A stretch of 64,000 bases of DNA from an uncultured Victivallales bacterium (GCA_964387425.1 CAYLXP010000004.1:4246-68245); one strand, 5' to 3'; shown: positions 4,414 to 34,759, counted from the stretch's first letter. The notes: generated from the sequence alone by a model not told the origin. Numbers and translations are program-made.

Positions 4414-4429
4414 TCAGGTTGCGTATAGT

Positions 4430-11796: not shown

Positions 11797-11826
11797 TTGT
11801 CCTTAGACGCGGCATCCCCATATACT
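11797..11826 (+). promoter_or_regulatory. candidate sigma70-like promoter (TTGTCC-N18-TATACT) upstream of the FGE-fusion gene
   Basis: Found by eye about 85 nt upstream of the preferred ATG at 11911. The track's ORF start at 11797 is the TTG of this hexamer. Confidence 0.25.
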
Positions 11827-11910
11827 CTGCCTATGCTAAATGGGGTGTTTGCAGGAACGGTTGGCGATGGGGAAGTTGTGTCGACCTTCAGAGAGAAACG
11901 GATCTGGACT

Positions 11911-18012: not shown

Positions 18013-19521
18013 TCAGTGTCGAGTCTTTGCCTTCTTGCCACCCTTGCCCTTGTTCGGAACCCACCGGAAGTCCTCACCCTCACAGACGAGTCGGATTTCC
18101 TTGCGTTTGGGACCCTTGCCTTGTGGTGCGGGGTCGCTCGGGATGATGGTTCCCATCCTCTTCTTGATGGGAGCATACTCCGGGTTTGCTGCAAGATTGT
18201 TCCATTCGTTGGGGTCGTTGCGTTGGTCGTAAAGCTCCTCGCCATCAGGGCGCGAGATGTAGCGCCAGTTGCGGTTGACGACACTGTACTGATCGTGATC
18301 GGTGGTGATGACCATGCGGTCCTTGGCCCCGTCGGGATTGCCAAAGACGGGAACCAGGCTCTTCCCGTCGATATCGGGATTGGCAGGTAGCTGGCAGAGA
18401 TCGGTCAGGGTCTTGTAGGTGTCGATCAGCCCAACCGTAACGTCGAGCTTCTTGCCTTTCGGAATGCCGGGGCCGGCCCAGATGAACGGCACGTTGGTCG
18501 TGCGCTCCCAGAGCGTATGCTTGGCCCAGCGGGTCTTCTCACCAAGGTGGTAGCCATTGTCGGACCAGAGCACGACGACCGTGTTGTCAGCATAGGGCGA
18601 CGCCTCGAGTGCATCGAGTACACGGCCCAGCATGGCGTCGGTATACGTGCAGGCGGCAAAGTACCCCTGCATCGCCTTCTTCCACAGGCCGTGCTCGACG
18701 AGAGGATCATGCACCTTGCGTCCGCGGCCCTCGGTCTGGCGGCGGATTGCCGGCGGGAGGTCGTCAAGATCGTCCGCCTTGAAGGGCGGCAATTGGATAC
18801 TCTCCAGCGGATACATGTCGAAGTACTTCTTCGGTGCGTAGTTAGGTTTGTGTGGTGCGTAGGTCCCGAATGCGAGGAAGAAGGGCTTGTCGTGCTCTTG
18901 TTTCAGGAAGTCTGCAGCCCAGTTAGCGCATAGCGTGTCGGCCATCCTCTCTTCGTCTTCGTTCGGCATGGCGAAGTGGTCAAACTCCGGCCAGCCGGTC
19001 ACCTTGCCGGTCTCCGCCAGCGGACGCACTGCCTTGGCGTCGATCGGCGCCCCGGGATCCCATGAGCCCAGGCGCCAGCCCTTCTGCTTGAGATCCTCGT
19101 TCCAGATGTACCAGTAGTCGAAGCCGCGCAGGTCGACGAAACCCTGCATGTGGTGATAAACCTTGCCGCCTCCGTAGACCTTGTAGCCGTTGGCCTTGAA
19201 GTACTGGGGAATATCCATGTGCTTCGGAATGTTGTACATGTGCGGTTCTTCGCCGTAGAGGCCGGAGTTGAAGGGCTGCAGACCGGTCATGATGGCTGTA
19301 CGCGACGGCGTGCAGTAGACACCCGGAGCATGGGCATTTGTGAACACGGTTCCGCGCGCCGCGAGCTTGTCGAGGTTAGGCGACTTCACCCGCGGGTCGC
19401 CCATCGCGTTCATCATGTCGTTCCAGTCATCAACAACAAGGAAGAGAACATTGGGGTGGGGGGCGGCTTGGGCTGCTATTCCGAGAAGAAGTACCAGTAA
19501 CAGGCTAAGTCTCACCATCAT
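18013..19521 (-). CDS. arylsulfatase (type I sulfatase, FGly-dependent), secreted
   Basis: A signal peptide is followed by NVLFLVVDDWND (metal-binding start) and the sulfatase signature C-x-P-x-R within VYCTPSRTAIMTGL, so it needs Cys-to-formylglycine maturation. Confidence 0.9.
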   Translation of the reverse strand: MMVRLSLLLVLLLGIAAQAAPHPNVLFLVVDDWNDMMNAMGDPRVKSPNLDKLAARGTVFTNAHAPGVYCTPSRTAIMTGLQPFNSGLYGEEPHMYNIPKHMDIPQYFKANGYKVYGGGKVYHHMQGFVDLRGFDYWYIWNEDLKQKGWRLGSWDPGAPIDAKAVRPLAETGKVTGWPEFDHFAMPNEDEERMADTLCANWAADFLKQEHDKPFFLAFGTYAPHKPNYAPKKYFDMYPLESIQLPPFKADDLDDLPPAIRRQTEGRGRKVHDPLVEHGLWKKAMQGYFAACTYTDAMLGRVLDALEASPYADNTVVVLWSDNGYHLGEKTRWAKHTLWERTTNVPFIWAGPGIPKGKKLDVTVGLIDTYKTLTDLCQLPANPDIDGKSLVPVFGNPDGAKDRMVITTDHDQYSVVNRNWRYISRPDGEELYDQRNDPNEWNNLAANPEYAPIKKRMGTIIPSDPAPQGKGPKRKEIRLVCEGEDFRWVPNKGKGGKKAKTRH

Positions 19522-19595: not shown

Positions 19596-21680
19596 CTAGC
19601 GGCAGAGCGCATATTGTCTTGGCTCAGCTTGGCCCTCTAGAACCGAGAGAGCCCCGGCGGCCATCGCTTCCATTTCCATGCCGTCCTTGAAGATGATGAT
19701 CTGGGCCAAGTGCCCAACGCGCTTCTTCAGAGTGGCGACGATGCGGTCTGAGCTTGCCATGTTGCCCGTGAGAACGATGGCGTCGACGGGGCCGTCAATG
19801 GCGATGTGCATGGCCCCGATCTCCTTGGCAATCTGGTAGATCATGGCGTAAACAGCCTTCTCGGCCTCTTCATCTCCATCCTGGATGCGCTTCTCAATCT
19901 CCGGTAACGAGTCTTCTCCGATGTAGGACACCAGGCCCGCGCGTTTGGTCAGCTCTTGCTTGAGGGCGACCTTGTCAAACTCGCCGCTGTAGCACAGGTC
20001 GATCAACTCGTTCTGGGGCAGTGTGCCGGCGCGCTGCCGCGTGAAGGGCCCTTCGCCGAGCAGTGCGATGGTGTTGTCCACGATTCTTCCATGTTTGACT
20101 GCTGCCACGGAGATGCCATCCCCGATGTGCGCAAGCAGGAAGCTGGATCGATCGAATGGGCGGCCAATCATGGCAGCGGCTTTTTGGGCCGACGCCCGAA
20201 TGCTCAGAATGTGCCCGGTGCTCTTGCGTTCGATCGGGGCATAGCCGGAGTAGCGGGCCTCCTCCTTTAGTTCATCCGAAACGACTGGATCGACAGAGAA
20301 CGCGGGGATCTTGTAGTGGTGCGCGAGCCGCGCGGCAATCGGAATGCCCAGGTTGGATGCATGATCCATCTCGGCATAGTCACGCACGGCGCTGACTATG
20401 TCCTTCTCTTCGTGGACCTCGCCATTCTCAACCGAGCAGACCTGGTATACGCCGCCCTTGATGCGCTGGTTCTCCCTGTTGAGGAAACCGCCGCGTCCCA
20501 CGACGGCGTCTAATGCGGGTAAGTCGTCGGTCAGAAAGCCCTGGATTTGCTCGACATAGCGTTCGACCTCTTCGTCCATTGCGCTGCCTGTGAGTCCGGA
20601 AACGTGAGGCCTTGCCACCTCGAACTTCTTCAGGCAGTGGCGGTTCTCGAAGAGGGCGAGTTTCGTGGATGCGGCGCCCGGGTTGATGGTGAGGATGTGG
20701 TGGGCCTCCCGCACCTCGGCGGCAGGCGAAGCGCCCGCTTGCTCGGCCTGCTTCCGGAGGTAGTTTGAGTAGATACAGGCGAGGGCAATTGAATCGATCT
20801 TTGATCGTTCGGGATCCGACCGCGATGAAATCACGTAAGGGGTCTTGATGCCCACCGTGACACAGGCCATGCGGGCCGTCTGTTTTGCCACCATACGCAT
20901 GAGCATCTTGTACATGATGTTGGCGGCATCCAGGGTGGGGTTCACGAGAATATCCGCCTGGCCGGCAACCTGGCGCATGGGGGAGTCTGCGGGGCCGTCC
21001 AGTTTCTTCAAGCGGACGGATTCGGGGTCGACGGAAAGGTCGAAAGACAGGGGCCCGTACACAACAGCGTTATCCCAGTGCGCGCTCGCCAGTTCATGGG
21101 CGAGTACCGTGGAGGGGAGGGCCTGCATCACCTTCTCGTTGCCGGCCAGGAGTGCCACCCTGGGCAAAGGAAGGTTCAGGGCGCACTGTGCAACTTCGAC
21201 GGCATTGTCGATCAGTCCAGTCATGCGACTGTAGTTGAGAATGGCCGACACGCCCGGGTCGGTCATGACCATGGGGACTCCATCGCGAATACAGTCCGCC
21301 TGGAAGACCGTGGCGAGTGACATGGTATCGCGTGTGCGAAGCTTCACGAGTTGGCGATTCAGAATAGGAGTGGAGATATTCCCTTTCTGGATGACATTCG
21401 TTCTGCCAGATCGGGCAAGCTCCAGGATGGTCTCTGCGGTCTGCTCCTGGGAATCCGTACCCACAATATCGGCGGTGGGAATTTCGAGCTCCAACCGGGA
21501 TGCCGCTGCAAGCATGTCTTTCTCATTGCCGACAAGAACGCACTGCTTGACATACGGTTTGTCCCGCACGTTGCGATAGAGAAGTAGGTCGCCTTCGCGA
21601 TCCCCGCCCGCAATCGCGATTGTCTGAGGGGTCAGTGATTCGGCGATGCTTTCGAATTGCGCAATTTCTGTGGCGGCCAT
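19596..21680 (-). CDS. fused phosphate butyryl/acetyltransferase (PTA_PTB domain) - butyrate kinase (Buk) protein, copy 1
   Basis: The N-terminal roughly 320 aa is Ptb/Pta-like (…DPGVSAILNY…VISSRSDPERSKIDSIALAC…). The C-terminal roughly 370 aa is butyrate-kinase-like (ILTINPGAASTKLALFEN…IVLTGNMASS…). The track start at 21845 adds a Pro-rich 55-aa extension and would overlap the ACT gene by 109 nt; ATG 21680 (MAATEIAQF) is preferred. Confidence 0.8.
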   Translation of the reverse strand: MAATEIAQFESIAESLTPQTIAIAGGDREGDLLLYRNVRDKPYVKQCVLVGNEKDMLAAASRLELEIPTADIVGTDSQEQTAETILELARSGRTNVIQKGNISTPILNRQLVKLRTRDTMSLATVFQADCIRDGVPMVMTDPGVSAILNYSRMTGLIDNAVEVAQCALNLPLPRVALLAGNEKVMQALPSTVLAHELASAHWDNAVVYGPLSFDLSVDPESVRLKKLDGPADSPMRQVAGQADILVNPTLDAANIMYKMLMRMVAKQTARMACVTVGIKTPYVISSRSDPERSKIDSIALACIYSNYLRKQAEQAGASPAAEVREAHHILTINPGAASTKLALFENRHCLKKFEVARPHVSGLTGSAMDEEVERYVEQIQGFLTDDLPALDAVVGRGGFLNRENQRIKGGVYQVCSVENGEVHEEKDIVSAVRDYAEMDHASNLGIPIAARLAHHYKIPAFSVDPVVSDELKEEARYSGYAPIERKSTGHILSIRASAQKAAAMIGRPFDRSSFLLAHIGDGISVAAVKHGRIVDNTIALLGEGPFTRQRAGTLPQNELIDLCYSGEFDKVALKQELTKRAGLVSYIGEDSLPEIEKRIQDGDEEAEKAVYAMIYQIAKEIGAMHIAIDGPVDAIVLTGNMASSDRIVATLKKRVGHLAQIIIFKDGMEMEAMAAGALSVLEGQAEPRQYALCR

Positions 21681-21736
21681 TTGAGTCACCTTCCCGTTCG
21701 AAGCCCCTTGCCGTTCAGGCTGAGGCTTTGCTGCCC

Positions 21737-22219
21737 CTACAGAGCGGTGATCGCGTAGACCTGGTCGACCAGGATCCCCTGCTTCTTCAGGCGGTGCAGG
21801 ATCGGGTCGAGCTGGTTTGGGGATCCCCCCAGGAAATACGTCCATCCCGTAGAATCGTTGTACATGAGTTCGCAGGTCAGGAAGGAACTCTCGCCTGCGA
21901 CGTCTTTCGGGGCCAGTTTGCGCTTGGTTTTGGTCACCACCGTCTTGCGGAGGTTGTCGCCGAGGTAGGGATGCTCTTCAACCTTCTTGACCTTGGATAG
22001 GCGACTCAGGATTCGCTTGATCGTCGCCTTTTCCTCTTCGGTACAAGTGAACGTAACCAGAACGGTGCCACCGCAGCCGGACGACGTGTCTGACCCGTGC
22101 CCTACAACCGAGTCGAGCGAGATGCTGCGGTTCGAGAACGCGGAGGCGATGCTAGTCAGGGCCCCTGCGCGGTCATCTACCCAGATGCGAATAAACCAAT
22201 GCTTGATTGCCTTGCTCAC
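21737..22219 (-). CDS. ACT-domain protein
   Basis: IRIWVDDRAGALTSIASAFSNRSISLDSV is an ACT-type regulatory fold motif. The protein is 160 aa, and its stop overlaps the upstream Ptb-Buk copy 2 start by 4 nt. Confidence 0.55.
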   Translation of the reverse strand: MSKAIKHWFIRIWVDDRAGALTSIASAFSNRSISLDSVVGHGSDTSSGCGGTVLVTFTCTEEEKATIKRILSRLSKVKKVEEHPYLGDNLRKTVVTKTKRKLAPKDVAGESSFLTCELMYNDSTGWTYFLGGSPNQLDPILHRLKKQGILVDQVYAITAL

Positions 22220-24336
22220 GACGAAACCCTCCTGTTCAAACTGTATTGCAGCGGCTTCTCCCTGCCGCTGAGAACCCGGCAGGCCCCCCTGGCCATGGCC
22301 ACCATTTCGAGCGATTCCCGGTATACTACGATGGGCCCCAGCGATGCGATGCGTCGACGGATACCACGGAGCAGGAGTGATGAGCGTACCATGCCGCCGG
22401 TCAGCACGATGGCTTCGACCTTGTGCTCCACGGCAGCGGCCATGGCCCCGATGTCCTTGGCTACCTGGTAAGCCATCGCTTCTACGACCCGCGCGGCCTT
22501 CTTATCACCACTTAGCGCTAATTCCCCAATTCTCTCCAGGCGATCGTCGCCGAGGTAAGAAACCAGTCCGCCCCGCTTGGTCAGTTCAGTGATTAGCTCG
22601 GCCTTGGACATGCCGCCGTCGTAGCACAGGTCGATCAGCTCCTTCTGCGGCACTCCCCCCGTCCTCTGTGGCGTGAAGGGACCCTCTCCGAGGAGCGCGA
22701 TGGTGTTGTCGATCATGCGTCCCTTGCGAATAGCTGCAATTGTGATTCCACCACCCAGATGCCCCACAACCACGTTTACCGCTTTCGGGTCGCGCTGGTT
22801 GTCCTCGGCAAACTGGTGCACGGCTGCCTTGATGCTCAGCGCGTGCGCCGTGCTCTTGCGCGTGATTCCGGCGTAGCCTGAGAGTTCTGCCTCGGGACAG
22901 AATTCATCAACGACCACGGGGTCCACGGCGTAGGCCGGCAGGGTGAGTCGCCGCGCATATGCCGCGGCCATGGGAATGCCCAGGTTGGATGCATGATCCA
23001 TCTCTGCGAACTCGGTTACCCCGCGCACGATGTCTTCCTGTACGCGCACCTTGTTCCGCTTGACGTCGGCCACCAGGTAGGTTCCGCCCTTGAGCTTGCC
23101 TTTCGGGCGTTTGAGGAATCCGCCGCGGCCCACGATGGCCGTGAGTCCTCGCACCTTGTGCTTGCGCAGAAAGGCGTCGACTTGTTCGATGCGTTCATCG
23201 ACTTCGGCCTGCAGGTCGCTGCCCGGCAGGAGCTTCGATGCGTAGGAGAGTTCCTGTTCGTGAAGGCAGGTGTCATTCTCGAAAACGGCTACCTTGGTGG
23301 ACGTAGAGCCAGGATTGATCGTCAGGATTCTCTGCGCTTTGGCAGCCTTCCGCTTTGCTGTCGCAACCCTTTCGCGGTGTCCCGTGCGTTCTGCATAGAC
23401 ACAGCACAGCGCGATTGAGTCGAGTTTGGTCTCGAGCGGGTCGGAGCGCGAGAGGATGCCGTAGGGGACTTCCACCCCCGTTGTGATTCCGGCCATGGAG
23501 GCATCCCCGTACTTGGCCATGGCCATGATGGTCTTGTAGACGGCGTTGGCCGTGTCGATCCCCGGGCATACCAGCACATCCGCCCGACCTGCCACCTGGC
23601 GCGCATTCCGGGAGGCAGGCATGCCCTTGCAGGAAACCGATTCCATATCTGTGGCCAGGTCAAACGACAGCGGACCGCACACGATCATGTCATTCCACTT
23701 GCGCTCGGCCAGTGCCGCGGCCATCACGGAAGAGTGAAGGGACGGGATAACTTTCTCGTTTGCGGAGAGCAGTGCAACACGCGGTTTCTCGATCCCGGTG
23801 ACGACCCGGCAAACGTCGGCGGCGCTCTCAATGAGGTCGATCAGGCGCCCGTAGGTGCATTCGGTTGTCACACCCGGGTCGGTAAGAAACATGGGGCGCC
23901 CGTCGGCCAGGGGTGCGGCGTCAAACATCGTCACCTGGCCCATGGTGTTGCGGACGCGCAGCTTGAGAATAGCCCGGCTGAGGGTGGGGGTGGAGATGTC
24001 GCCCTTGATGATGATGTCGGCACGACCCTTTCGTACCAAATCAACGGTCTTGGCGGCGGTTTCCTCGTCCGAGGCCGTGTTGAGAATATGGGATTCCGGA
24101 ACGTCAATCCCGACCTTGTGTGTGGCAACCCGGATACGGTCGGCATCGCCGATCAGCAGGCAGTCGCGGATGATGCCGTGGTCCCGGGCCGACTCGAGGA
24201 GCCTCAGGTCATCCTCTCGATGGCCGCCGGGGATGACGACGTTTTTCGGCGCCATCGCCCCGGCAACTTCGAGTAGATCAGAAACACCGGCGACCTTGGG
24301 AAGGTCGCCGGTGTTCCGGTTGTTCGTTTGAGTCAT
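22216..24336 (-). CDS. fused phosphate butyryl/acetyltransferase - butyrate kinase protein, copy 2
   Basis: It has the same architecture as copy 1: a Ptb-like N-terminal half, then RILTINPGSTSTKVAVFEN…AIVLTGGMVRSSLL in the Buk-like C-terminal half. It is a paralog of copy 1. Confidence 0.8.
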   Translation of the reverse strand: MTQTNNRNTGDLPKVAGVSDLLEVAGAMAPKNVVIPGGHREDDLRLLESARDHGIIRDCLLIGDADRIRVATHKVGIDVPESHILNTASDEETAAKTVDLVRKGRADIIIKGDISTPTLSRAILKLRVRNTMGQVTMFDAAPLADGRPMFLTDPGVTTECTYGRLIDLIESAADVCRVVTGIEKPRVALLSANEKVIPSLHSSVMAAALAERKWNDMIVCGPLSFDLATDMESVSCKGMPASRNARQVAGRADVLVCPGIDTANAVYKTIMAMAKYGDASMAGITTGVEVPYGILSRSDPLETKLDSIALCCVYAERTGHRERVATAKRKAAKAQRILTINPGSTSTKVAVFENDTCLHEQELSYASKLLPGSDLQAEVDERIEQVDAFLRKHKVRGLTAIVGRGGFLKRPKGKLKGGTYLVADVKRNKVRVQEDIVRGVTEFAEMDHASNLGIPMAAAYARRLTLPAYAVDPVVVDEFCPEAELSGYAGITRKSTAHALSIKAAVHQFAEDNQRDPKAVNVVVGHLGGGITIAAIRKGRMIDNTIALLGEGPFTPQRTGGVPQKELIDLCYDGGMSKAELITELTKRGGLVSYLGDDRLERIGELALSGDKKAARVVEAMAYQVAKDIGAMAAAVEHKVEAIVLTGGMVRSSLLLRGIRRRIASLGPIVVYRESLEMVAMARGACRVLSGREKPLQYSLNRRVSS

Positions 24337-24362: not shown

Positions 24363-24986
24363 CTAGGCCGCAGCAGCTTCAGATCCTGATCCTGCTGTCA
24401 CCTTTGCTTCGTACGCACCGCGCCAGGCGACGGTGATGAAGCCGAAGATCTGGCCCACGATGCAGCCGATCATTTCCGGGACGGCTACGGACATGAATCC
24501 GGGCATGTCGTGAGCGATACCGATCTTGACCGCTTCGCCGGCTTCGTTGAGGCCAACCCCGCCGCCAAGTGTCATGATGGCGAAGAACATGCCTGATCCG
24601 ATGAAGAGGCCGGGAATGAAGTCGAACATAGGCACGCGTTCCAGGCTGATCGCGGGAATAACGATGATGAAGACCGCGAGAGCATAGGACAGGTAGTAGT
24701 TCGGCGCCTCGGCTGAGCCCAGGGGAACCGCCAGCGCATCACCCATCAGCATGATGATGATCGAGGCGATGATACCGCTGAGGTACGCGAGGACGACCTT
24801 CACACCGTTCTTGGGTGTGCACCCGGCGGCGAAGTAGACGGCCCACGCCTGGAACGTGACGAAGATGAGAAGTCCCGGGCCTCCGACGGCCGCGGTTGAG
24901 CCCGGTACGAACTTGGCAATCAGCATGAGAATTGCCGCCTGAACGCCCAGCAGAATAGGGATGATGATGAATTTACCAAATGACAT
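24363..24986 (-). CDS. multi-pass inner-membrane protein (about 6 TM), unknown function, possibly a small transporter or DUF1097-like
   Basis: It is highly hydrophobic (IIIPILLGVQAAILMLIAKFV…, …VVLAYLSGIIASIIIMLMG…, …GLFIGSGMFFAIMTLGGG…) and tightly packed between Ptb-Buk 2 and the LsrF-like gene. Confidence 0.5.
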   Translation of the reverse strand: MSFGKFIIIPILLGVQAAILMLIAKFVPGSTAAVGGPGLLIFVTFQAWAVYFAAGCTPKNGVKVVLAYLSGIIASIIIMLMGDALAVPLGSAEAPNYYLSYALAVFIIVIPAISLERVPMFDFIPGLFIGSGMFFAIMTLGGGVGLNEAGEAVKIGIAHDMPGFMSVAVPEMIGCIVGQIFGFITVAWRGAYEAKVTAGSGSEAAAA

Positions 24987-25000: not shown

Positions 25001-25879
25001 TTACTTAGATGCTTTGAGGTCGTTAAACATAGTGAAGGCGTCTGCCGGTGTCGCACCGTCATGCACCACATGCCCGACAGCCTTGATCATGGCAATCGGA
25101 TCTTCCGACTGGAACACGTTGCGCCCCATATCAACGCCCGCAGCGCCATCGTTGATGGCCTTGTAGGCGAGCTCGAGCGCTTCGTCCTCGGGAAGCTTCT
25201 TGCCGCCCGCGATCACAATCGGAACCGGACAGCAGGCCGTAACCTTCTCGAAGCCCTCCGTGTAGTAGGTCTTCACGATGTTCGCCCCGTTCTCCGCGCA
25301 GATGCGCGACGCAAGACCGAAGTAGCGTGCATCGCGCGCCATGTCCTTGCCAACCGCCGTGACACCCATCACGGGGATCTCGAAGCGCTGCCCGAGGTCG
25401 GCCAGCTCGTAGAGGTTGGCGATCGTCTGCGCTTCCATGTCGGGATCGCCAATCGCCAGCATGATCGCCATCGCCGAGGCGTTCAGACGCACGGCGTCTT
25501 CCACGTCGATGATCACGTTGTCGTTCAGCTGCGTCAGGATCGAGGTGCCGGCGTCAGAGCGCAGGCAGATCGGCTTGTTGTAGGTCGGCGGGATGCAGGT
25601 GCGGATGATGCCGCGTGCGCCCATCAGGCAGTCTGCATGCTCAACCAGCGGGACGATGTTGAGGTCGATACGCTCCACGCCGGAGGTCGGCCCCATGATG
25701 AACCCGTGGTCAAACGCCAGCATGACCGTCTTGCCGGTGTCGGGCCGGAAGATTCGGGACATGCGGTCCTTCATCCCCCAACCCATGTTGTCGCACCCTT
25801 TCAGGTGGAATCCCTGGCTTTCGGCCGGCTTGTCCAAGCCGAAATCCTTGCCGTCTCTGATGTCGTCTAAATCCGCCAT
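25001..25879 (-). CDS. lsrF: LsrF-type DhnA-family class I aldolase/thiolase (3-hydroxy-5-phosphonooxypentane-2,4-dione thiolase-like)
   Basis: The 292-aa length matches LsrF. The N-terminus [18 protein letters not shown]…HLKGC…WGM…[18 protein letters not shown] closely matches E. coli LsrF as I recall it (MADLDDIKDGKDF…[12 protein letters not shown]…). [28 protein letters not shown](V/I)FQS and IAMIKAV are also conserved. Confidence 0.7.
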
Positions 25880-26514
25880 TACTCTAGTCCTTTCTTCAGT
25901 CCCTCAAATAGAAGCGCCATTGAGGTCGCCCCGGGGTCAACGTGTCCGATTGACCGCTCCCCGATGTTCTTTGCCCGGCCGAACGTGGCCTGCATTTCCT
26001 TCGTCGATTCAGCCCCCTTGACGGCAGCTTCCGCACCAGCAGCCAGTGCCGTAAGAACACAAGGCTGTGCGTCTGCCGATTCCCGAAGGGCGGCCAGTGC
26101 CGGAACGAGCGTGTCGATCATGGTCTTTCCACCCACTTCAGCCCGGGTGTTCTTCCGGAGCTTTGCGACGCCTGACTCCAGCATGGAGACAAACGTGGTG
26201 CAGTCGATGGGACCTTCTTCAGGTGTGGCATTGCTCATGCCGATGAAGAGCGAACCATACAACGGGCTGGTAGAACCGGCGTCCGTCGACATGGCTGCCC
26301 AGCCGATCGCTTTGAGCAACGTTTTGAGCTCATTGCTCTCGTCCTTTTCGATGGTATCAATGATAGCGTCAGCCACCTTTGAGACCGCCGTCCCGTGATC
26401 ACCATCACCGGTAGCCGAGTCGAGCTGGGACAGGTGGTCCCGGTTCTCTTTGAGCAATCCGGCTGCCGTCTGAAGCATACTGACGACAGAGCTGTAATCT
26501 ACTGTTTCCGGCAC
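25879..26514 (-). CDS. dhaL: dihydroxyacetone kinase ADP-binding subunit DhaL
   Basis: The 211-aa length and [20 protein letters not shown]…, an all-helical DhaL-type sequence, match DhaL. Its stop overlaps the LsrF start by 1 nt. Confidence 0.8.
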
Positions 26515-26595
26515 CTCAGGCCTCCTTTTCGAGGTGTTTGTGAAGGATCGAAGATCCCCGCCGCAGGGCGGGGATCTCCGGTAAGGTCTGGTTGC

Positions 26596-27597
26596 CTAGC
26601 GCGTTACCCAGAACGGCGCGTCCGACGGAGCCTTCATCAGTTCGACCAGCTCGTCATCCAGTTTCGCGGCGCACATCTGGAATCCGCCCATTTCCTGAAC
26701 GGTGAGGTACTCACCGACCAGTGCGTGGGCGACGGTTATGCCCTGCGACTCGGCGTAGTTCTTGGTCGCACGGAACACGATGAACTGTTCCATCAGCGTG
26801 GTTGCGCCGGCGCCGTTGATCATGAGCATGATCTTGTCGCCGCTTGCGCAGTTGGCGGCAGGCAGAACCTGCGTGGCCATCTTGACTGCCGTCTCGTCAG
26901 CCGTCAGCATCTTCGAGCTACCCGTGCCGGCTTCGCCGTGCTGGCCCATGCCGATCTCCATCTCGTCGTCCGCGAGGTCGAAAATCGCGCCCCCGGACTG
27001 CGGGTGGGTTGCGGTCTTGAGCGCAACCGCCAGCGTGGCCATGTTGTCGTTGATCTTCTCGGCCACGGCGTAGACTTCGTCCAGGCTCTTGCCGGCCTCG
27101 GCCGCGGCGCCAGCCACCTTGTACAGCGGAATGCAGCCGGCCAGGCCGCGCTTGTCCTCTATCGGAGCGTCGGCGCCCGGTGCAATGTCTTCGTGCGTCA
27201 GGATCATCTTGACGTTGATGCCTTCTTCTTCCGCCATTTCCATGGCCATATTGCCGCTCATGACGTCGCCTTCGTGATTCAGCACCACGAAGAGGATACC
27301 GGCGTCGCGCTTGAGCAGGCGCATGGCTTCGACGACTTTCGGGGCACCCGGGGCGGCGAAGACGTCGCCGACAACCGACGCGTCCAGCATGCCTTCGCCC
27401 ACGAAACCGCTCAGGGCGGGCTCGTGACCGGCGCCGCCGAGCGTGATGATCGCGACTTTGCTCTCATCCTTCGGGGTGGCACGCATGACGATTTTGTCGG
27501 ATACCAGTTTGACCTGCTCCGGGTTGGCGCCGCAGTAGCCTTCCAGCAGTTCGGCGGTGAGGTTGTCGGGATCGTTGATGAATTTCTTCATTGGCAT
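26596..27597 (-). CDS. dhaK: dihydroxyacetone kinase substrate-binding subunit DhaK
   Basis: The 333-aa length, GGAGHEPALSGFVGEGMLDASVVGDVFAAP (the GHEP hemiaminal-His motif) and FVVLNHEGDVM match DhaK. No DhaM-like gene is in the operon. Confidence 0.85.
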   Translation of the reverse strand: MPMKKFINDPDNLTAELLEGYCGANPEQVKLVSDKIVMRATPKDESKVAIITLGGAGHEPALSGFVGEGMLDASVVGDVFAAPGAPKVVEAMRLLKRDAGILFVVLNHEGDVMSGNMAMEMAEEEGINVKMILTHEDIAPGADAPIEDKRGLAGCIPLYKVAGAAAEAGKSLDEVYAVAEKINDNMATLAVALKTATHPQSGGAIFDLADDEMEIGMGQHGEAGTGSSKMLTADETAVKMATQVLPAANCASGDKIMLMINGAGATTLMEQFIVFRATKNYAESQGITVAHALVGEYLTVQEMGGFQMCAAKLDDELVELMKAPSDAPFWVTR

Positions 27598-27624: not shown

Positions 27625-27969
27625 TTAGTATGCGGATCCAGCGTCGCCACCGGACATTTCCATGAACTCGATCGGGCAGCCTTCGCCATCGACGATGAAC
27701 GCGATGCGGAGCGACTCGTTAACGGCGACGGGATCGAGAATGACCTTCTGTCCCGCAATGGCCGCGTCGAGGTCTTCGACGATATAGGCGATATGCGTGT
27801 GATCCTGGATTTCGCGAGGCATTTCGCAGTCGGCGTCGAAACGCAACCACTCAATGTTGTGTTCGCTGTTCGCAAAATCGGTGAGATGGAGCTTCATACC
27901 CTCGGCGTATGTCTCGCCCGCTTTGGACTCTGTTGTGGGGATTCCCACATGGCTGAATGTCTTCGTCAT
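27625..27969 (-). CDS. small VOC (glyoxalase/bleomycin-resistance-like) fold protein
   Basis: The N-terminus FSHVGIPTTESK… and IAYIVEDLDAAI resemble the VOC betaalphabetabetabeta start motifs. The protein is 114 aa and tightly linked to dhaK. Confidence 0.4.
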   Translation of the reverse strand: MTKTFSHVGIPTTESKAGETYAEGMKLHLTDFANSEHNIEWLRFDADCEMPREIQDHTHIAYIVEDLDAAIAGQKVILDPVAVNESLRIAFIVDGEGCPIEFMEMSGGDAGSAY

Positions 27970-27995: not shown

Positions 27996-28742
27996 CTAGT
28001 GACCCGTGCTCTTGAATTCCATGTCCGGCTTACTGAAGTGCACGTGATTGTGGTACGTGGCACCTTCCGTGATGATCGCACCGTCCGGCCCCGCGATGAT
28101 GCCATGCCAGGCTTCGGGATCCTGGAGCTTGTACATGATGTTCTTCTTCGCATCGCGATGGGTGATGTATTTCGACTTGAACCACTTCTCGCCATAGCCC
28201 CAGGGACGCTGGTCTTCGGGAAGGTCGCTGATCTTCATCTCGTCGCCGTGCTTGTACTCACCGTAGAAGCGAACGTCGCCGTAGCGAACGTGCCAGGCTT
28301 CCATTTTCGGCGGCAGGTCTTCCGGGCCGCCCAGGTGGGCGTGCTCGGGCAGCGTCTGTCCGGGCAGCAGGTAGATTTCGTGCAGCAGGTAGCCGAAGTG
28401 TGCATCCTTGAACTTGCCCTTGTACTTGCCGGCGCCGGTGGACTTGTACTCGCCCTTTTCGTTCAGCCAGAAGATGCCGCCCATGCCCAGCGCCAGGATG
28501 TTGCCCTGGTTGAAGTCGCAGACCCAGAATTCATCGGTCTTGAGTACGTCCGGAATCGGGTAGTTGAAACGCTCAAACATGTCGTAGTAGGCCTGCTTGA
28601 CCTCCTCGATATTCATCTTCCCGTCATCATAGAAGCTCTCCACGCATCCTCCTTTTCCAACCTTTGGCGCGGTTGCACACCCCGAAAGGATTCCCGCTAC
28701 TCCGACTGCTACCGACATTGCTACGACATGCCTCTTCTTCAC
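27996..28742 (-). CDS. lipoprotein, D-lyxose ketol-isomerase-like cupin
   Basis: LLPGQTLPEHAHLGGPEDLP and WHVRYGDVRFYGEY resemble the YdaE-type lyxose isomerase motifs (FPGQTCPEHRHPP, FRCRYGKVYLY). The preferred start is GTG 28742, 5 nt after AAAGGAGGG. It gives a classical lipoprotein signal, MKKRHVVAMSVAVGVAGILSGC. The track start at 28817 lacks an RBS and leaves only 26 nt to the divergent AraC gene. Confidence 0.55.
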   Translation of the reverse strand: MKKRHVVAMSVAVGVAGILSGCATAPKVGKGGCVESFYDDGKMNIEEVKQAYYDMFERFNYPIPDVLKTDEFWVCDFNQGNILALGMGGIFWLNEKGEYKSTGAGKYKGKFKDAHFGYLLHEIYLLPGQTLPEHAHLGGPEDLPPKMEAWHVRYGDVRFYGEYKHGDEMKISDLPEDQRPWGYGEKWFKSKYITHRDAKKNIMYKLQDPEAWHGIIAGPDGAIITEGATYHNHVHFSKPDMEFKSTGH

Positions 28743-28843
28743 CACTGCCCTCCTTTTTGTCAACGCGTGTCCTTGCCGCACGATGACCTGTTCCGATTGG
28801 ACCGAAATAGTAGTCACTACGCGAGTAGAAGGGAATAGAAGGA

Positions 28844-29782
28844 ATGATGTTTCTTCTTGTGTTTTTTGACATGGATGTGCAGCCTGTTGGCGGTATGGCG
28901 GAGCGACAAGAACAGATTCGGGTTTCCACCGTCGTTATGAACGGCCTGGTGGAGGAAATTGGCCAGACACTTGGGGTGGGGGTGTTGAATTGTGCACCCG
29001 CGGAACCGACGGTGGAGGTCATTGCCGAGGTAGAGGGTACGGTCGGGTTCTGCTTTCATATGAACCGTGGACTGCAGATTCCTCTACATACGTCGGCTCC
29101 CGGCAAAGCGATTGTGGCATCTCTACTGCCTGATGATCGTGAGGATGTGATCTCGCGGATGTCCTTCAAGGTGTTCACCGACTACACGATCTCGACCCCT
29201 GGTGCATTCAGAACGGAGCTCAAGGAGGTTAGTCAGCTTGGATACTCCATCGATCGGAATGAGCAGGTCCTGAATTGCCACTGTATCGGTGTGCCCGTCT
29301 GCTTTCCTGGCGAGACCAACGTGGCGGCCCTCTGGACCACGGGACCGGCCAACATGCTGCCCGAGGACTCTTTTCCCGAGGTCGCCCGGCTCCTTGCGAA
29401 GGGCGCTGATGAGATCGAGGCGGCCCTGGGTGGAGCGAGCAGGGAGATAAACGCCGAGTACATACACCACGTGGTTGCCCGTGCGATCCAGATGATGGAT
29501 GTGACGCTGAATCAGCGGATGGACATGAAGCAAGTGGCGGCCGACCTCTGCGTGAGTTACTCCTGGTTCCGCCAGGCCTTCAAGAAACGCACCGGCTTGA
29601 GCCCGAATCAGTACCATATGCAGCGGCGGATCGAAAAGGCGAAGGAGCTACTCGCCAGCCCGCATGTAAAGGTCAAGGACGTCTCCGCGCAATTGGGCTT
29701 CTCCGATGAGTGCTACTTCTCCACCCGCTTCAAACAGCAAACCGGCCAGAGCCCGCAGGCATATCGGGATGGGCTGAGCTGA
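28844..29782 (+). CDS. AraC-family transcriptional regulator with N-terminal ligand-binding domain (start possibly ATG 28895)
   Basis: The C-terminal AraC HTH reads …MKQVAADLCVSYSWFRQAFKKRTGLSPNQYHMQRRIEKAKELL…LGFSDECYFSTRFKQQTGQSPQAYR. The gene is divergent from the catabolic operon. Confidence 0.75.
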   Translation: MMFLLVFFDMDVQPVGGMAERQEQIRVSTVVMNGLVEEIGQTLGVGVLNCAPAEPTVEVIAEVEGTVGFCFHMNRGLQIPLHTSAPGKAIVASLLPDDREDVISRMSFKVFTDYTISTPGAFRTELKEVSQLGYSIDRNEQVLNCHCIGVPVCFPGETNVAALWTTGPANMLPEDSFPEVARLLAKGADEIEAALGGASREINAEYIHHVVARAIQMMDVTLNQRMDMKQVAADLCVSYSWFRQAFKKRTGLSPNQYHMQRRIEKAKELLASPHVKVKDVSAQLGFSDECYFSTRFKQQTGQSPQAYRDGLS

Positions 29783-30572: not shown

Positions 30573-30990
30573 GTCGTCTTCCTCTGCCGGACAAGATGTC
30601 CGGCCTACCAAGGAAGTTTCCATGATGTATGATCCGGCGGAGGCAAGACGCCTCGCGCCTGAAACTGGCCTCGAGAGCTACTCGGACTGTCGCATCGGAA
30701 GACGATAGCGGGCGACGAGAGCGCTAGACGATTGATATGATCACTACTCGTTATCCGTTCTCGCCCCCTATCGTCAACCGGTTCCCCTTCTTGTTGGCTC
30801 CATTTCGATCCCGTGTCAAATCGCACAAGTCGATTTATCATAACCCTCATTTTCTGTTGAAGTCCCTTGCTCTACACTGCTCGTGATGAGACGGAGAGAG
30901 TAGTGCAAGCTTCCAGCTTGCGAGTTCACAAGCAAGATGCTTGTGCTACACTATTGGACTACAAGTGAACTGACTGGAGATAAACAGGAC

Positions 30991-33900
30991 ATGAACCCTA
31001 CTACGAAACTGAGAATACTGAGTTTGGCATCCATGCTACTGATCACCGCGTCATCAATGTGGGCAGGCACCTGCACCTTCAGCGACTGGCGCGTGAGTCA
31101 CGAAGGCAAAGTCACAAACTGGGTGGGAAGCGTGAAAGCAACCCAGGGGTTGCCGGAATGGTACGACGAAACCGAATGGCAGATGAATCGCGGCAAACGC
31201 TTCTCCAACAAGAAAGCCGACATCTATGCGGTGTGCGAGGTCACGGCTGATCGCGCCTATACCCAAGGCCTGTCGATATCAGGCCATACCAAAATACGTC
31301 TCAATGGTAGGGAGGTGGAACCGTACGAGAAACTGAACATCTTCAGTTTGGCTCTCAAGCGCGGCAAGAACGTCTTCGAAGTCAAGGCCCTGAAGGGCGG
31401 GAGCAAACTGCTGCTTACACGCGTGAACCTGGATCACATGTTTGTGCCAACCAATGCCAAGATCCGGAATGCGGAGCTCGCGATTAATGCACTGGGGAAG
31501 CGGTATTCTGACTATCCAGCAAAGAAGCATCTTGCGCGCCTGAAGGCGCTCAAGAAGAACAAGGCATCTGACGAAGAGGTCGAGAAACTGCGCTATCGTG
31601 CGCTGGTGTTGGACAACCCCGATGTTGATTTCGACAAGATCCTGTTCCGGGCGTCAAAGAGTACCTCCATGCCGGCCAACTGGCTGGGCAACGCCTCGTA
31701 CATTCGCAGCCGCGGTTCGGAACGCCAGGTGAACTTCAATGATGAGCTGTTGACGCTCAATCTGAAGAACCGCGCCATGGCGCCTGTCTGCAAGGGCGCC
31801 GACTCGCGTGAGGCATTCATGGATATTGCGCTGGATTACGATGGGACGAAGTTCCTCTTCTCCGGTGTCGATCTCGAGAGCAATAGCTTCCAGGTGTACG
31901 AGATGAATGTTGATGGCACCGGTAGGCGGCGCATCACCACGCCGGTACCGGCGATCGACAACTACAATGGGATTTACCTGCCGGGCGGCAAAATCCTCTT
32001 CTGCTCGACATCATCCCTCAACGCCGTGCCATGCGTTTCGGGTAGCCAGTATGTTGGGAACCTCTACGAAATCAACCCCGACGGATCCGGCATGCGCCAG
32101 GTGACCTTTGACCAGGAAAACGACTGGTACCCCTGGGTGACCGACGATGGTCGGGTGATGTACCTGCGCTGGGAGTACACCGACAACGCACACTATTTCA
32201 CGCGGATCCTCATGAAGATGAATCCCGACGGAACCAACCAACGGTCCATCTACGGTTCAAACTCCTATTTCCCGAACACCATGTTCTATGCCAAATCGAT
32301 CCCCGGGCGACCCTCGCAGTTTGCGGCGATCTGTTCGGGGCACCATGGAGTGTCGCGCGCGGGCGAGTTGATCATTTTTGACACGGCCAAGGGTGAGTTC
32401 GAGGCAGATGGTGCTGTGCAGCGGATTCCAGGGCGCGGCGAGGAGGTTGAACCCGCGGTTATCGACCAGTACATGAGTGGCAAGTGGCCGCGGTTTCTGC
32501 ATCCTTATCCGTTGAGCGAGGACTTCTTTCTGGTGTCCGGCCAATTGGATCCCCGGCAGAGATGGTCTCTTTACCTGGTGGATCGCTATGATAACATGAT
32601 CAAGCTCGCCGAGTCCGATCGGCATCTCTACGAGCCCGTGCCCCTGAAAGCGCGTAAGCGTCCCCCCGTCCGGCCTGACAGCCGGAACTTCGCCGCGGAG
32701 GATGCAACGCTATTCATCCAGGACATCTACGAAGGTCCGGGATTGGAAGGGGTTCCCCGCGGGACGGTCAAGTCGCTACGGCTCTTTACTTATGGCTATG
32801 CCTATCGCCAGGTGGGCGGTCATGAGGCTCTTGCTGTTGAGGGCGGTTGGGACACGAAGCGTGTGCTCGGCACGGTGCCCGTAGAGGAGGACGGCTCTGT
32901 CATGTTCAAGATTCCGCACAGCAAGCCGATCTCCATCCAGCCGCTGGATAAAGATGGGCGTGCATTGCAGTTGATGCGTAGCTGGCTGACGGCCATGCCC
33001 GGTGAACGGCTTTCCTGCATTGGTTGCCACGAGCGCAGCAATACGGCGCCGCCGCCACGCGTTGCCGCTGCGGCGCGCAAGGCTCCCGAGAACCTCACGC
33101 CCTGGAGAGGCATTGCGCGTCCGTACGGGTTCGGTTTTAAACGTGAGGTGCAGCCCGTACTCGACAAGTTCTGTGCGGGTTGTCACAAAGGCCAGGATGG
33201 CCGTCCCAACTTCGCAGACGCCACCGAAGAACAGTTCGGTAGGCGGCGCTTCGGCAAATCCTATCTTGCTCTGCATCCCTACGTGCGCCGGCCCGGTCCC
33301 GAGAGCGATATGCATCTGCTTCCGCCCATGGAGTACCACCCATCAACCAGCGAGCTGGTTCAGTTGTTGGAGAAGGGTCACTATGGGGTTGAGTTGGACG
33401 AGGACGCATGGTCCCGCCTGATTACGTGGATCGACCTCAATGTGCCCTACCACGCGACCTGGCTCGAGGAGCGCAACTACGACGAGGCCACCCAACAGAA
33501 GGCCGCCGATACCGTGGCGCTCAAGAAGCGCTACGCCGGTATCGACGACAACATCGAGTGGATGCCTAAACGGCCCATTGAAACGCCGGAATTCATCAAA
33601 CCCAAGCCGGTCAAGCGCACCGCGGATACCGTGACCCTGGATGGTTGGCCCCTCAGCGAGCAGGGCGCGAAAGCGCTCGCGGGTGAGACCAGGAGCTTCA
33701 AGGTTGGCGGGCGCAAAATGACCTTCGTGAAAGTTGCCGCCGGAAAATTCGTGATGGGTTCAAAAGATGGCGCCCTTGATGAAGCTCCGCGGAGCATCGT
33801 TTCGATCGACAAGCCGTTCTGGATGTCCGTGAAGGAGCTCACGAACCGGGAGTACAGCGATTTTGATCCCACGCACGACAGCGGGGCGATCGATCAGCAG

Positions 33901-34583: not shown

Positions 34584-34712
34584 CGTCGTCCTTCGGACGC
34601 CGCGGCGTGCGCTCGGAGATCGCACGCTACTGAGAGCCACGCTGGCGTGGCCTACTCCCAGGTAGCCGTTGCTCTCCGAGCGACGGCAGCAACGCCCGGA
34701 GGGCGGTGAATG
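34584..34712. repeat. copy A of a roughly 130 bp structured intergenic repeat (conserved arms, variable centre)
   Basis: cgtcgtccttcggacgccgcggcgtgcgctcggagatcgcacgctactga … gtagccgttgctctccgagcgacggcagcaacgcccggagggcggtgaatg is near-identical to 41810-41943. Each arm carries its own hairpin (gcgtgcg-N9-cgcacgc; gttgct-N14-agcaac). gcgctcggaga in the left arm is the reverse complement of tctccgagcg in the right arm. Confidence 0.6.
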
Positions 34713-34759
34713 AGCAGTGCACTGGGAGTGCGAAAGAGCTAGCAACAGGAGAAACAGGT

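Follow-up and report, generated by a model that had tools for sequence, protein, structure and literature searches.

An LsrF cassette with a VOC protein and DhaK/DhaL points to an undescribed route from a small keto-sugar to DHAP and acyl-CoA

Why should a gene for an LsrF-type thiolase be found next to dhaK and dhaL? The question is raised by a 64,000-nucleotide stretch of DNA (the window) from an uncultured Victivallales bacterium. LsrF reportedly carries out a CoA-dependent transfer of the acetyl group of P-HPD, giving DHAP and acetyl-CoA. An earlier note on this DNA regarded the gene as orphaned from the lsr (AI-2) operon and coupled to DhaK/DhaL in place of the FGGY kinase LsrK, and proposed that the substrate had changed with the kinase. 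The cassette described here, in which LsrF is joined to a VOC protein and DhaK/DhaL, points to a route from a small keto-sugar to DHAP and acyl-CoA. We found no description of the cassette in the searchable literature, and the papers on fucoidan degraders that we consulted do not mention its genes.

The trio itself is real. The genes dhaK (26596..27597, 333 aa, Pfam Dak1 344 bits), dhaL (25879..26514, 211 aa, Pfam Dak2 151 bits) and lsrF (25001..25879, 292 aa) all lie on the minus strand where they had been placed and give strong full-length HMM matches, and dhaL and lsrF do share one base at their stop and start codons (gagTAATGgcg). The description of lsrF as orphaned was wrong. The gene is part of a larger conserved cassette including a VOC protein, which is probably the analogue of LsrG, and a cupin resembling sugar isomerases. 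In the window the trio forms the middle of a run of ten genes on the minus strand, in the order exported lyxose-isomerase-like cupin (27996..28742), VOC protein (27625..27969), DhaK, DhaL, LsrF, DUF1097 protein (24363..24986), Ptb-Buk fusion (22216..24336), ACT-domain protein (21737..22219), second Ptb-Buk fusion (19596..21680) and exported sulfatase (18013..19521). The sulfatase (174 bits) is the last gene on this strand and its membership of the unit is uncertain. The earlier note had missed the VOC and cupin genes upstream of the trio and the DUF1097, Ptb-Buk and ACT genes downstream of it. A regulator in which an IclR-type effector domain is fused to an AraC-type HTH (28844..29782, plus strand; Pfam IclR_C 71 bits, HTH_18 75 bits) is transcribed divergently from the run. 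A scan for promoters and terminators gave a signal no better than in shuffled sequence.

Is the thiolase a genuine LsrF? The protein scores 452.3 bits against the LsrF equivalog model NF006081 (cut-off 297), with residues 1-289 matching positions 1-290 of 291. Its identity to E. coli LsrF is 58%, and PDB 3GKF is matched with E=4e-108. Ten residues are invariant in 95 LsrF sequences (D57, H58, K203, Y205, G226, G227, D251, M252, G253 and R254); they include the whole phosphate site (His58, Gly226, Gly227, Gly253, Arg254). Lys203 forms the Schiff base and Asp57 is the general base, and the Asp251 beside the lysine is specific to LsrF, the related aldolases having Ala or Ser at this position (PMC2728841). 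The window protein keeps Lys203 and Asp57, and Asp251 within a VDMGRN motif. The alternative that it is a generic DhnA aldolase is thus not so by score and catalytic residues, and judged from its sequence it is a true LsrF-type enzyme.

Of the two kinase subunits, DhaL passes the equivalog model TIGR02365 (163 bits, cut-off 138.3) and keeps the Asp triad which binds Mg-nucleotide in an LDxxxGDGDHG motif. The DhaK motifs GGAGHEP, HEGD and GQHGE align with His56, Asp109 and His218 of E. coli DhaK, which supply the hemiaminal His together with the His and Asp of catalysis. All three are kept. It should be noted that DhaK falls under every NCBIfam equivalog cut-off for the family (TIGR02363, 318.7 against 406.25; NF011049, 339.4 against 492; TIGR02361, 257.9 against 575), and these low scores fit a substrate other than dihydroxyacetone. 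The mechanism of Dak-type kinases is described in PMC6429413. Among solved structures L. lactis DhaK (3CT4) comes closest, and in sequence the protein resembles the two-subunit, PTS-dependent kinases more than the ATP-dependent Dak. DhaM and DhaR are both absent from the 64-kb window, as noted earlier for DhaM, and neither is found in any of about 90 related loci; for DhaM this covers every DhaKL-linked locus examined.

The VOC protein (114 aa) reaches the threshold of no Pfam model, and its assignment comes from residues and fold. It has an invariant His/Glu/His/Glu metal-site pattern (H7, E40, H59, E101), and its profile finds the glyoxalase I structures 3HDP and 2QH0 in the PDB with E=4e-7. 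The AF2 model (pLDDT 92.9) consists of paired beta-alpha-beta-beta-beta modules, and its best Foldseek matches are all VOC proteins (3HDP with TM 0.68, 2QH0, 6BU2), of the glyoxalase I / methylmalonyl-CoA-epimerase fold. We propose that it is probably an isomerase and the functional analogue of LsrG. Its gene is upstream of dhaK in all 69 related loci with enough sequence. A 223-aa double-VOC match (P0121) was set aside because of its restriction-modification context.

The cupin also is without a Pfam match. A profile built from 28 homologues finds D-lyxose isomerases (7NZO, E=9e-22; 2Y0O, E=9e-20), and the motif PEHxH...K.E...H...E is kept, which contains both the HxH...E...H metal site and the catalytic Lys and Glu. 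By these matches the cupin is a member of the D-lyxose/D-mannose isomerase superfamily and a putative isomerase. In the window it is a predicted lipoprotein of 248 aa starting from the GTG at 28742; ahead of this GTG is an AAGGAGG Shine-Dalgarno sequence, and after it comes MKKRHVVAMSVAVGVAGILSGC with a lipobox. Cupin genes are present in 57 of 74 loci containing DhaK; the protein is exported in most lineages, whereas planctomycetes and alphaproteobacteria have it in the cytoplasm. It shows no relationship to the 118-aa cupin encoded in the lsr operon of L. paracasei.

The genes downstream of lsrF suggest transport and acyl-CoA handling. The small YcdZ-like inner-membrane protein (Pfam DUF1097 53 bits) is a candidate substrate channel or transporter; its gene adjoins the cassette in 11 of the 74 loci and also occurs in Aureibacter. 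Each Ptb-Buk fusion joins a Ptb-like phosphate acyltransferase to an acyl kinase of the butyrate kinase family (PTA_PTB and Acetate_kinase domains). Copy 1 passes the butyrate kinase model NF002834 (373 bits against 222) and stays under the cut-off of the Ptb model TIGR02706 (166 bits against 410), and copy 2, 694 aa from its called start, is 46% identical to copy 1. The ACT-domain protein between them has 160 aa (Pfam ACT 29 bits). Ptb-Buk together with ACT is found in the window and in three planctomycete cassettes (L013, L016, L019), where the ACT homologues adjoin the Ptb-Buk gene; in L013 and L016 the order is Ptb-Buk, ACT, VOC. Buk alone is present in locus L004 and in Aureibacter. Of roughly 85 loci, no more than about 6 show a linkage to Ptb-Buk or Buk; they belong to three phyla.

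How general is this arrangement? The same operon, identically arranged, is present on at least 24 metagenome contigs. Carriers of the cassette are found in Verrucomicrobiota, Kiritimatiellia, Lentisphaerae, Bacteroidota (including Parabacteroides distasonis), Planctomycetota, Actinomycetes (Actinomycetota), Alphaproteobacteria and Vibrio (Gammaproteobacteria; among them Vibrio sp. 99-70-13A1). DhaK and/or DhaL adjoins lsrF in 72 of the 75 informative related loci, from several phyla, and the coupling to DhaK/DhaL and not to an FGGY kinase, first claimed from the window, holds well beyond it. The core of this conserved catabolic cassette is VOC, DhaK, DhaL and LsrF, usually with the cupin and often with DUF1097 alongside. 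In P. distasonis the four core proteins are WP_005857750, WP_009275032, WP_008779698 and WP_005857742. The minimal form in Vibrio has five genes only (VOC, DhaK, DhaL, LsrF and DUF1097) and is without a cupin. Regulators of the IclR family are found next to the cassette in 14 related loci, and sulfatases similar to that of the window are found in 4. The layout of the alphaproteobacterial cassettes resembles an lsr operon, with a regulator of the SorC/LsrR type and a CUT2 ABC transporter; the closest solved structures to their binding proteins are ribose and YtfQ binders, and these are distant relatives only. As a rule a large set of genes for periplasmic haem, cupin and propeller proteins accompanies the cassette. 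The window also encodes, on the plus strand, two dihaem proteins with a hydrazine-synthase-alpha-like domain and an FGE/SUMF1 domain. One (30937..34515; Pfam HZS_alpha 108 bits, FGE-sulfatase 142 bits), which is secreted and has the FGE/SUMF1 domain at its C-terminus, has CxxCH motifs at 694 and 746; the other (11797..15483), with CxxCH at 743 and 793, has in addition an N-terminal discoidin (galactose-binding-like) domain. Homologues of the first are syntenic with the cassette in 31 related loci.

The absence of Lsr partners reported for the window extends to the related loci. No homologues of LsrK, LsrG, LsrR or LsrACDB are present in the 64 kb; LsrK is in no DhaKL-linked locus, LsrK-like kinases being confined to three FGGY-type comparison loci, and LsrG is in no related locus. 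Oceanospirillaceae loci from the same LsrF clade pair LsrF with an ABM protein and not with a VOC protein; this ABM protein is linked to LsrG through its Pfam family only and has no BLAST similarity to E. coli LsrG. Isomerases of the VOC and ABM types are therefore interchangeable as partners of LsrF, and so are the kinases.

The claim that the exchange of kinase implies a different substrate was not borne out. Enzymes of the main clade are substituted beside the catalytic residues (Y60F, F61I, Q141M, S109D), which at first looked like evidence for a new substrate. This evidence is weakened by the DhaKL-linked enzymes of Vibrio and Aureibacter, which keep the E. coli-type residues at these positions. 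The DhaKL-linked LsrF proteins were monophyletic in a first tree and ceased to be so once Vibrio was added, the Vibrio enzyme grouping with the FGGY-linked ones in 89 of 100 bootstraps. As a DhaKL-linked LsrF can be E. coli-like and branch with FGGY-linked enzymes, the kinase swap alone does not imply new chemistry; what the sequences indicate is that the kinase has been exchanged on a conserved LsrF.

From the gene identities, conserved residues, folds and synteny observed above we infer a pathway in which DhaKL replaces LsrK and the VOC protein replaces LsrG, neither being orthologous to the enzyme it replaces, and LsrF cleaves a P-HPD-like diketone phosphate to DHAP and acyl-CoA; we give this reading about an even chance. 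It seems that that half of the Lsr pathway which lies in the cytoplasm has been put together anew in the cassette, with parts that are not homologous. What would enter the cell, possibly through DUF1097, is a small free sugar of the alpha-hydroxy-carbonyl or dicarbonyl kind, which the cupin of many lineages may have isomerised beforehand between aldose and ketose. The conserved hemiaminal His of DhaK would bind the carbonyl covalently and DhaL would phosphorylate the primary hydroxyl next to it. ATP itself is the probable donor, since DhaM is linked nowhere and the carriers include Bacteroidales, which to our knowledge have no PTS. The metal-dependent VOC protein would shift the carbonyl through an enediolate in the manner of glyoxalase I, before or after the kinase step. 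This is the reaction of the ABM-fold LsrG in E. coli, and the product would be a 1-phospho-2,4-diketo-3-hydroxy compound resembling P-HPD. LsrF would then form a Schiff base through Lys203, transfer the acyl half to CoA and release DHAP and acyl-CoA. In the window the two Ptb-Buk fusions and the ACT protein may finally convert the acyl-CoA through an acyl phosphate to the free acid with formation of ATP. The core cassette has no oxidoreductase, and the substrate must therefore already be at the oxidation level of the diketone or be oxidised elsewhere. Against the replacement reading, DhaK is closer to the PTS-dependent type and a DhaM may be encoded elsewhere in the genome; the location of the cupin, varying by lineage, is awkward for a fixed order of steps; and the few loci with Ptb-Buk or Buk and the lack of a redox enzyme in the core also count against it.

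A layout of isomerase, kinase and aldolase is just as characteristic of ordinary pathways in which an aldose is finally split by a retro-aldol reaction. The cupin would then produce a 2-ketose, DhaKL would phosphorylate C1, the VOC protein would epimerise C3 and the LsrF-like protein would behave as a simple class I aldolase and yield DHAP with an aldehyde such as glycolaldehyde, lactaldehyde or glyceraldehyde; DhaKL could phosphorylate glyceraldehyde too. Such a pathway agrees with the kept D-lyxose isomerase motif of the cupin and needs no redox enzyme in the core, and in the window a tandem GH29 fucosidase and the sulfatase are consistent with a fucoidan-type locus. Yet the LsrF passes its equivalog cut-off with Asp251 and is without the Tyr or Glu proton donor of the true aldolases of the fold. 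The cassette has no conserved aldehyde dehydrogenase or reductase, while the acyl-CoA-handling Ptb-Buk is linked in three phyla, and the Vibrio cassette does without a cupin. Fucosidases are linked in just 2 other related loci, and fucose as the substrate, suggested by the tandem GH29, was dropped for lack of a conserved association. We consider an aldose pathway rather unlikely. That DhaKL is a normal dihydroxyacetone or glycerol kinase, with an adjacent lsrF of no functional meaning, we regard as hardly credible. DhaL does pass as an ordinary DhaL, but DhaK fails all its cut-offs, neither DhaM, DhaR nor a glycerol dehydrogenase is present, and lsrF is translationally coupled to dhaL in the window; the conserved synteny effectively refutes this explanation.

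The remaining alternative is that the substrate is AI-2 (DPD) itself and that the cassette takes up and destroys the interspecies signal independently of LsrK and LsrG, with DHAP and acetyl-CoA as products. The fully conserved LsrF residues, the exchangeable VOC and ABM partners, the lsr-like layout in alphaproteobacteria and the position of the Vibrio enzyme speak for it. So does the substrate, since glyceraldehyde is a substrate of Dak kinases and the C3=O/C4-OH/C5-OH end of DPD is similar to it. On the other side, the alphaproteobacterial binding proteins have 0 of the 6 residues by which LsrB contacts AI-2 and are 16% identical to LsrB, the main clade is substituted beside the catalytic Asp-His, and the periplasmic haem, cupin and propeller set would not be needed for AI-2. 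A search of 1.5 Mb of related loci turned up no luxS, which is weak evidence. On balance we think it unlikely that AI-2 is the substrate. A narrower variant is that the minimal cassette, as in Vibrio, may be a second, Lsr-independent route of AI-2 consumption.

The replacement pathway can be extended to the periplasm, although we hold this extension to be doubtful. The cassette may then form the cytoplasmic part of a pathway, so far undescribed, which spans two compartments in anaerobic degraders of glycans, human-gut Parabacteroides among them; in the periplasm a precursor released from glycans would be turned into a small dicarbonyl sugar. The proteins responsible would be the dihaem hydrazine-synthase-alpha-like/FGE protein, with a CcsBA haem-attachment protein of its own, a YncE-propeller cytochrome c, a Mal s 1-like propeller and the exported lyxose-isomerase-like cupin. 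After import DhaKL would phosphorylate the sugar, the VOC protein isomerise it and LsrF split it thiolytically to DHAP and acyl-CoA, with extra ATP gained through Ptb-Buk.

An LsrF or AI-2 thiolase label on a gene from Bacteroidota, Verrucomicrobiota, Planctomycetota or some Vibrio is now taken to indicate AI-2 processing; as these genes have no Lsr partners, the labels call for a new interpretation. The cassette also offers a testable role for two families without a Pfam model, the VOC protein (about 105-114 aa) and the exported cupin, and for DUF1097. For pathway evolution it would be a clean case in which two of three steps have been non-orthologously replaced (FGGY by Dak kinase, ABM by VOC isomerase), and if this is true covalent Dak-type kinases reach a new class of substrates. 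Should the substrate be AI-2, quenching of the signal could be far more widespread among gut and marine bacteria; should it be an oxidised sugar, anaerobic polysaccharide degraders would have a new energy-conserving route of C-C cleavage.

The known system closest in logic is the Lsr pathway of E. coli and Salmonella, which likewise combines a kinase and a carbonyl-shifting isomerase with a terminal LsrF. There the kinase is the FGGY protein LsrK and the isomerase the ABM-fold LsrG, whereas the cassette has a two-subunit covalent Dak-type kinase and a candidate VOC isomerase; the window lacks LsrR, LsrACDB and an LsrB-type receptor and adds the exported cupin, DUF1097 and Ptb-Buk. In the PTS-dependent DhaKLM systems of E. 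coli and L. lactis, as in the cassette, K and L are two subunits of their own with a conserved hemiaminal His, catalytic His/Asp and DhaL Asp triad, but their partners are DhaM/DhaR and glycerol dehydrogenase, where the cassette has a thiolase and a DhaK under the equivalog cut-offs. Dak-family kinases acting on larger ketoses are the L- and D-erythrulose kinases LerK and DerK of Mycobacterium smegmatis and mammalian triokinase. They are alike in that a Dak-type kinase has been recruited, in a dedicated catabolic cluster, for a sugar larger than dihydroxyacetone. In their pathways isomerases lead on to erythrose 4-phosphate or glyceraldehyde 3-phosphate, and we know of none with an LsrF thiolase or a VOC protein. 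LsrF is also found outside canonical lsr operons at the end of other sugar-like catabolic clusters, with an FGGY kinase, a GlpD-like oxidase and a class II aldolase on plasmids of Shinella and Sagittula, and with a Zn-ADH and ABM in Oceanospirillaceae. In these the kinase is FGGY or there is none nearby, and a dedicated oxidoreductase, which the DhaKL cassette does not have, could create the diketone. The non-phosphorylative L-fucose and L-rhamnose pathways also degrade a sugar by C-C cleavage of a 1,3-diketone. They end in a 2,4-diketo-3-deoxy-acid hydrolase which splits a non-phosphorylated acid hydrolytically to pyruvate and lactate, whereas the cleavage proposed for the cassette would be thiolytic, acting on a phosphorylated ketose to give DHAP and an acyl-CoA from which ATP could be recovered.

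The genes dhaK (26596-27597, minus strand), dhaL (25879-26514, minus) and lsrF (25001-25879, minus) were described in an earlier note, from the sequence alone, as an LsrF orphaned from lsr and coupled to DhaK/DhaL. The gene assignments are correct: DhaK (333 aa) matches Pfam Dak1 with 344 bits, DhaL (211 aa) matches Dak2 with 151 bits, the 292-aa LsrF, which has the DeoC/LacD fold, scores 452 bits (cut-off 297) in a full-length match to NF006081, the LsrF equivalog of NCBIfam, and the stop codon of dhaL overlaps the start codon of lsrF (TAATG). The term “orphaned” is wrong, since lsrF sits within a ten-gene same-strand run with intergenic gaps of -4 to 81 nt. The upstream end of the run is formed by an exported cupin (27996-28742), with a 114-aa VOC protein (27625-27969) between it and dhaK. 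Beyond lsrF lie a DUF1097 membrane protein (24363-24986), two phosphotransacylase/butyrate-kinase-family (Ptb-Buk) fusions (22216-24336 and 19596-21680, the second 46% identical to the first), an ACT protein between them (21737-22219) and a sulfatase (18013-19521), all on the minus strand. The gene at 28844-29782, divergent from the run, codes for a regulator that combines an IclR effector domain with an AraC HTH. At least 24 metagenome contigs share this operon, and their LsrF is identical. The Ptb-Buk paralogues, with the ACT protein between them, are in tandem at 19596-24336 (minus), and we know of no description of fusions of this kind.

Scanning one genome per species gave 326 relatives, and the best 80 of these (71-89% identity) were studied with 10-kb flanks. 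The coupling proposed in the earlier note is real and strongly conserved: immediately upstream of lsrF, 72 of the best 80 encode DhaK and/or DhaL. In five more the contig ends just upstream of lsrF, and only three loci truly lack DhaKL (two Oceanospirillaceae, one Fibrobacteria). An HMM search of six-frame ORFs found the VOC gene in 69/69 loci where dhaK has 450 nt or more upstream, and at most 300 nt from dhaK in 71 loci; of the 74 DhaK-containing loci, 57 have the cupin and 11 have DUF1097. The carriers include Puniceicoccales, Kiritimatiellia, Lentisphaerae, many Bacteroidales, Pirellulales, Phycisphaerae, Sedimentisphaerales, uncultured Actinomycetes and the alphaproteobacteria Pseudovibrio and Polycladidibacter; annotated records with the cassette include Parabacteroides distasonis and Aureibacter tunicatorum (Cytophagales). 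One Vibrio isolate has a minimal form consisting of VOC, DhaK, DhaL, LsrF and DUF1097. The LsrF of a contig labelled Anaerobutyricum sp. (L068) clusters tightly with Tannerellaceae sequences (L063, L071); this contig is probably mis-binned and not a Firmicutes occurrence. LsrG was not detected in any cassette locus examined, and among all related loci examined LsrK-like kinases occur only in three FGGY-type comparison loci. The cassette is not described in the searchable literature.

The LsrF of the window is 58% identical to that of E. coli, and the closest solved structures are LsrF 3GKF, 3GLC and 4P2V (E about 1e-108). In the E. coli enzyme the Schiff-base lysine is Lys203, the general base is Asp57, the LsrF-specific Asp251 replaces the Glu/Tyr proton donor of related aldolases, and the phosphate site is made up of His58, Gly226, Gly227, Gly253 and Arg254 (Diaz et al., PMC2728841). 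The alignment which the earlier note suggested as a check bears out its assignment: in 95 LsrF sequences all eight of these positions, Lys203 and the LsrF-specific Asp251 among them, are invariant, and so are Tyr205 and Met252.

The kinase subunits also keep their functional residues, the His/Asp motifs in DhaK and the Asp triad LDxxxGDGDHG in DhaL, as the same note proposed to check. The DhaK motifs GGAGHEP, HEGD and GQHGE align with His56, Asp109 and the hemiaminal His218 of E. coli. DhaL reaches the equivalog cut-off, and DhaK falls below every DhaK or Dak cut-off; its closest structure is the PTS-dependent DhaK of L. lactis. DhaM is not linked in any of the related loci examined, and the cassette occurs in Bacteroidales, which to our knowledge are without PTS. 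For these two reasons ATP is the likelier direct phosphoryl donor. The mechanism of DhaK/DhaL-type kinases is summarised in PMC6429413.

No Pfam model matches the 114-aa protein or the cupin. For the small protein, a profile built from 27 homologues finds Clostridium glyoxalase I (E=4e-7), and the AlphaFold model of the protein (pLDDT 92.9) retrieves only structures of the VOC superfamily, among them glyoxalase I (3HDP, TM 0.68), methylmalonyl-CoA epimerase and HPPD domains. H7, E40, H59 and E101, the classic VOC metal-site pattern, are invariant. A profile of 28 cupin homologues leads to D-lyxose/D-mannose isomerases (E=9e-22), and the metal and catalytic motif lines up with theirs. In the window the cupin starts at a GTG at 28742, preceded by a strong Shine-Dalgarno sequence, which gives a 248-aa precursor with a predicted lipoprotein signal, MKKRHVVAMSVAVGVAGILSGC, and an LSGC lipobox. 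In this region (27996-28817, minus) public gene calls begin the cupin at an internal Met (215 aa) and lose this signal. Most homologues have Sec, lipoprotein or TAT signals; the 197-aa versions of planctomycetes and alphaproteobacteria have none.

The four invariant genes would correspond to the three cytoplasmic Lsr steps, with DhaKL in the role of LsrK and the VOC metalloprotein in that of LsrG; a carbonyl shift of this kind, through an enediolate, is what glyoxalase I catalyses. The LsrF step would then yield DHAP and an acyl-CoA, which Ptb-Buk could take through an acyl-phosphate to ATP. The window and three planctomycete loci (L013, L016, L019) have a Ptb-Buk fusion and the ACT protein in the cluster, and a butyrate-kinase gene alone is linked in one Verrucomicrobiota MAG and in Aureibacter. 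This linkage fits such a branch and therefore favours thiolysis over retro-aldol cleavage. A plain aldolase pathway, one of the two main alternatives, appears unlikely. The other is that the substrate is AI-2 itself. AI-2 (DPD) would suit the proposed chemistry, but in the alphaproteobacterial cassettes the binding proteins have 0/6 LsrB contact residues, and we regard this alternative as quite improbable. A non-orthologous, Lsr-like thiolysis of a phospho-diketone is the best mechanism we can offer, and we give it about an even chance. Since the core cassette contains no oxidoreductase, oxidation must take place elsewhere unless the substrate is a dicarbonyl or deoxy-diketo sugar from the outset.

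Further clues to the substrate come from a conserved extra gene set joined to the cassette in Bacteroidota and many PVC genomes. One member is a secreted HZS/FGE protein of 1100-1330 aa, in which a middle domain of the hydrazine-synthase-alpha type is combined with two CxxCH motifs and, at the C-terminus, an FGE/SUMF1 domain; the others are a dihaem cytochrome with a YncE propeller, a propeller protein like Mal s 1, a dedicated CcsBA and a chorismatase-like/RidA fusion. The HZS/FGE protein is found in 31 related loci; members lie at 3366-7352 in P. distasonis (L091) and at 15236-18876 in L093, and two copies flank the operon in the window (11797-15483 and 30937-34515, plus strand). Its PDB relatives are PorK/GldK, HZS-alpha 5C2V, PvdO and FGE, and one has an N-terminal discoidin domain; in Bacteroidales the cytochrome, the Mal s 1-like propeller and CcsBA accompany it. 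The RidA fusion (RidA398; 19 loci, 1368-2462 in P. distasonis) is a cytoplasmic protein of ~385 aa with an FkbO/Hyg5-like N-terminal domain and a RidA/L-PSP domain, adjoins the cupin in the Bacteroidales forms of the cluster and may point to a step that hydrolyses an enol ether or imine. Four Kiritimatiellae and Lentisphaeraceae MAGs (L033, L051, L056, L061) have a PF06439 gene (3-keto-disaccharide hydrolase-like/DUF1080) immediately before the VOC gene; in these loci the ORF caller, a crude one that may have missed it, gave no cupin. The linked set and the PF06439 gene suggest a substrate that most lineages form in the periplasm from a precursor, possibly by oxidation. In the window the stretch 34706-41739 (plus) encodes a GFO/IDH/MocA oxidoreductase with a TAT signal, a HEAT+PA14 protein and a protein of 1042 aa that carries two alpha-L-fucosidase (GH29) domains and CBM6/35, and a LamG protein lies at 15760-18000. 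Together with the sulfatase, the GH29, GFO/IDH/MocA and LamG genes resemble a fucoidan-type utilisation locus from a Puniceicoccales-like organism; fucosidase linkage to the cassette is not conserved among the related loci. A 2165-aa ORF lies at 55781-62278 (minus).

DhaKL-linked LsrF proteins have a mean identity of 76% among themselves and 55% to FGGY-linked LsrF. Their main clade shares the substitutions Y60F, F61I, V105C, S109D, Q141M, H150A, S152T and M197N, part of which adjoin the catalytic Asp-His; they are no proof of a new specificity. At most of these sites the DhaKL-linked LsrF of Vibrio has retained the E. coli-type residue, at some so has that of Aureibacter, and in a bootstrapped NJ tree the Vibrio protein clusters with FGGY-linked enzymes in 89/100 replicates. 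These residues and this position show that the partner kinase has been swapped while LsrF stayed otherwise conserved.

Other partners are found as well. The lsr operon of an L. paracasei plasmid (L095, 798-9888) has lsrK, lsrR, an ABC transporter, an LsrB-like protein with 4/6 AI-2-contact residues and lsrF, and instead of lsrG a 118-aa cupin and RbsD adjoin lsrK. On the plasmids Shinella p1 (L092) and Sagittula p3 (L094) the neighbours of LsrF homologues of 59-63% identity are an FGGY kinase, an oxidase resembling GlpD (glycerol-3-phosphate dehydrogenase), either a class II aldolase or an SDR fusion, and an ABC transporter not of the LsrB type; here is another non-canonical LsrF pathway, whose diketone could arise by sugar-phosphate oxidation. 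The Oceanospirillaceae loci (Osedax symbiont Rs2, L007, and a MAG, L008) have neither DhaKL nor the VOC gene. Their LsrF (78% identical to the window protein; unit at about 8405-10879 in L008) falls inside the main DhaKL clade and is accompanied by a Zn-dependent dehydrogenase and an ABM protein, a member of the Pfam family to which LsrG belongs. The isomerase and kinase partners of LsrF are evidently modular.
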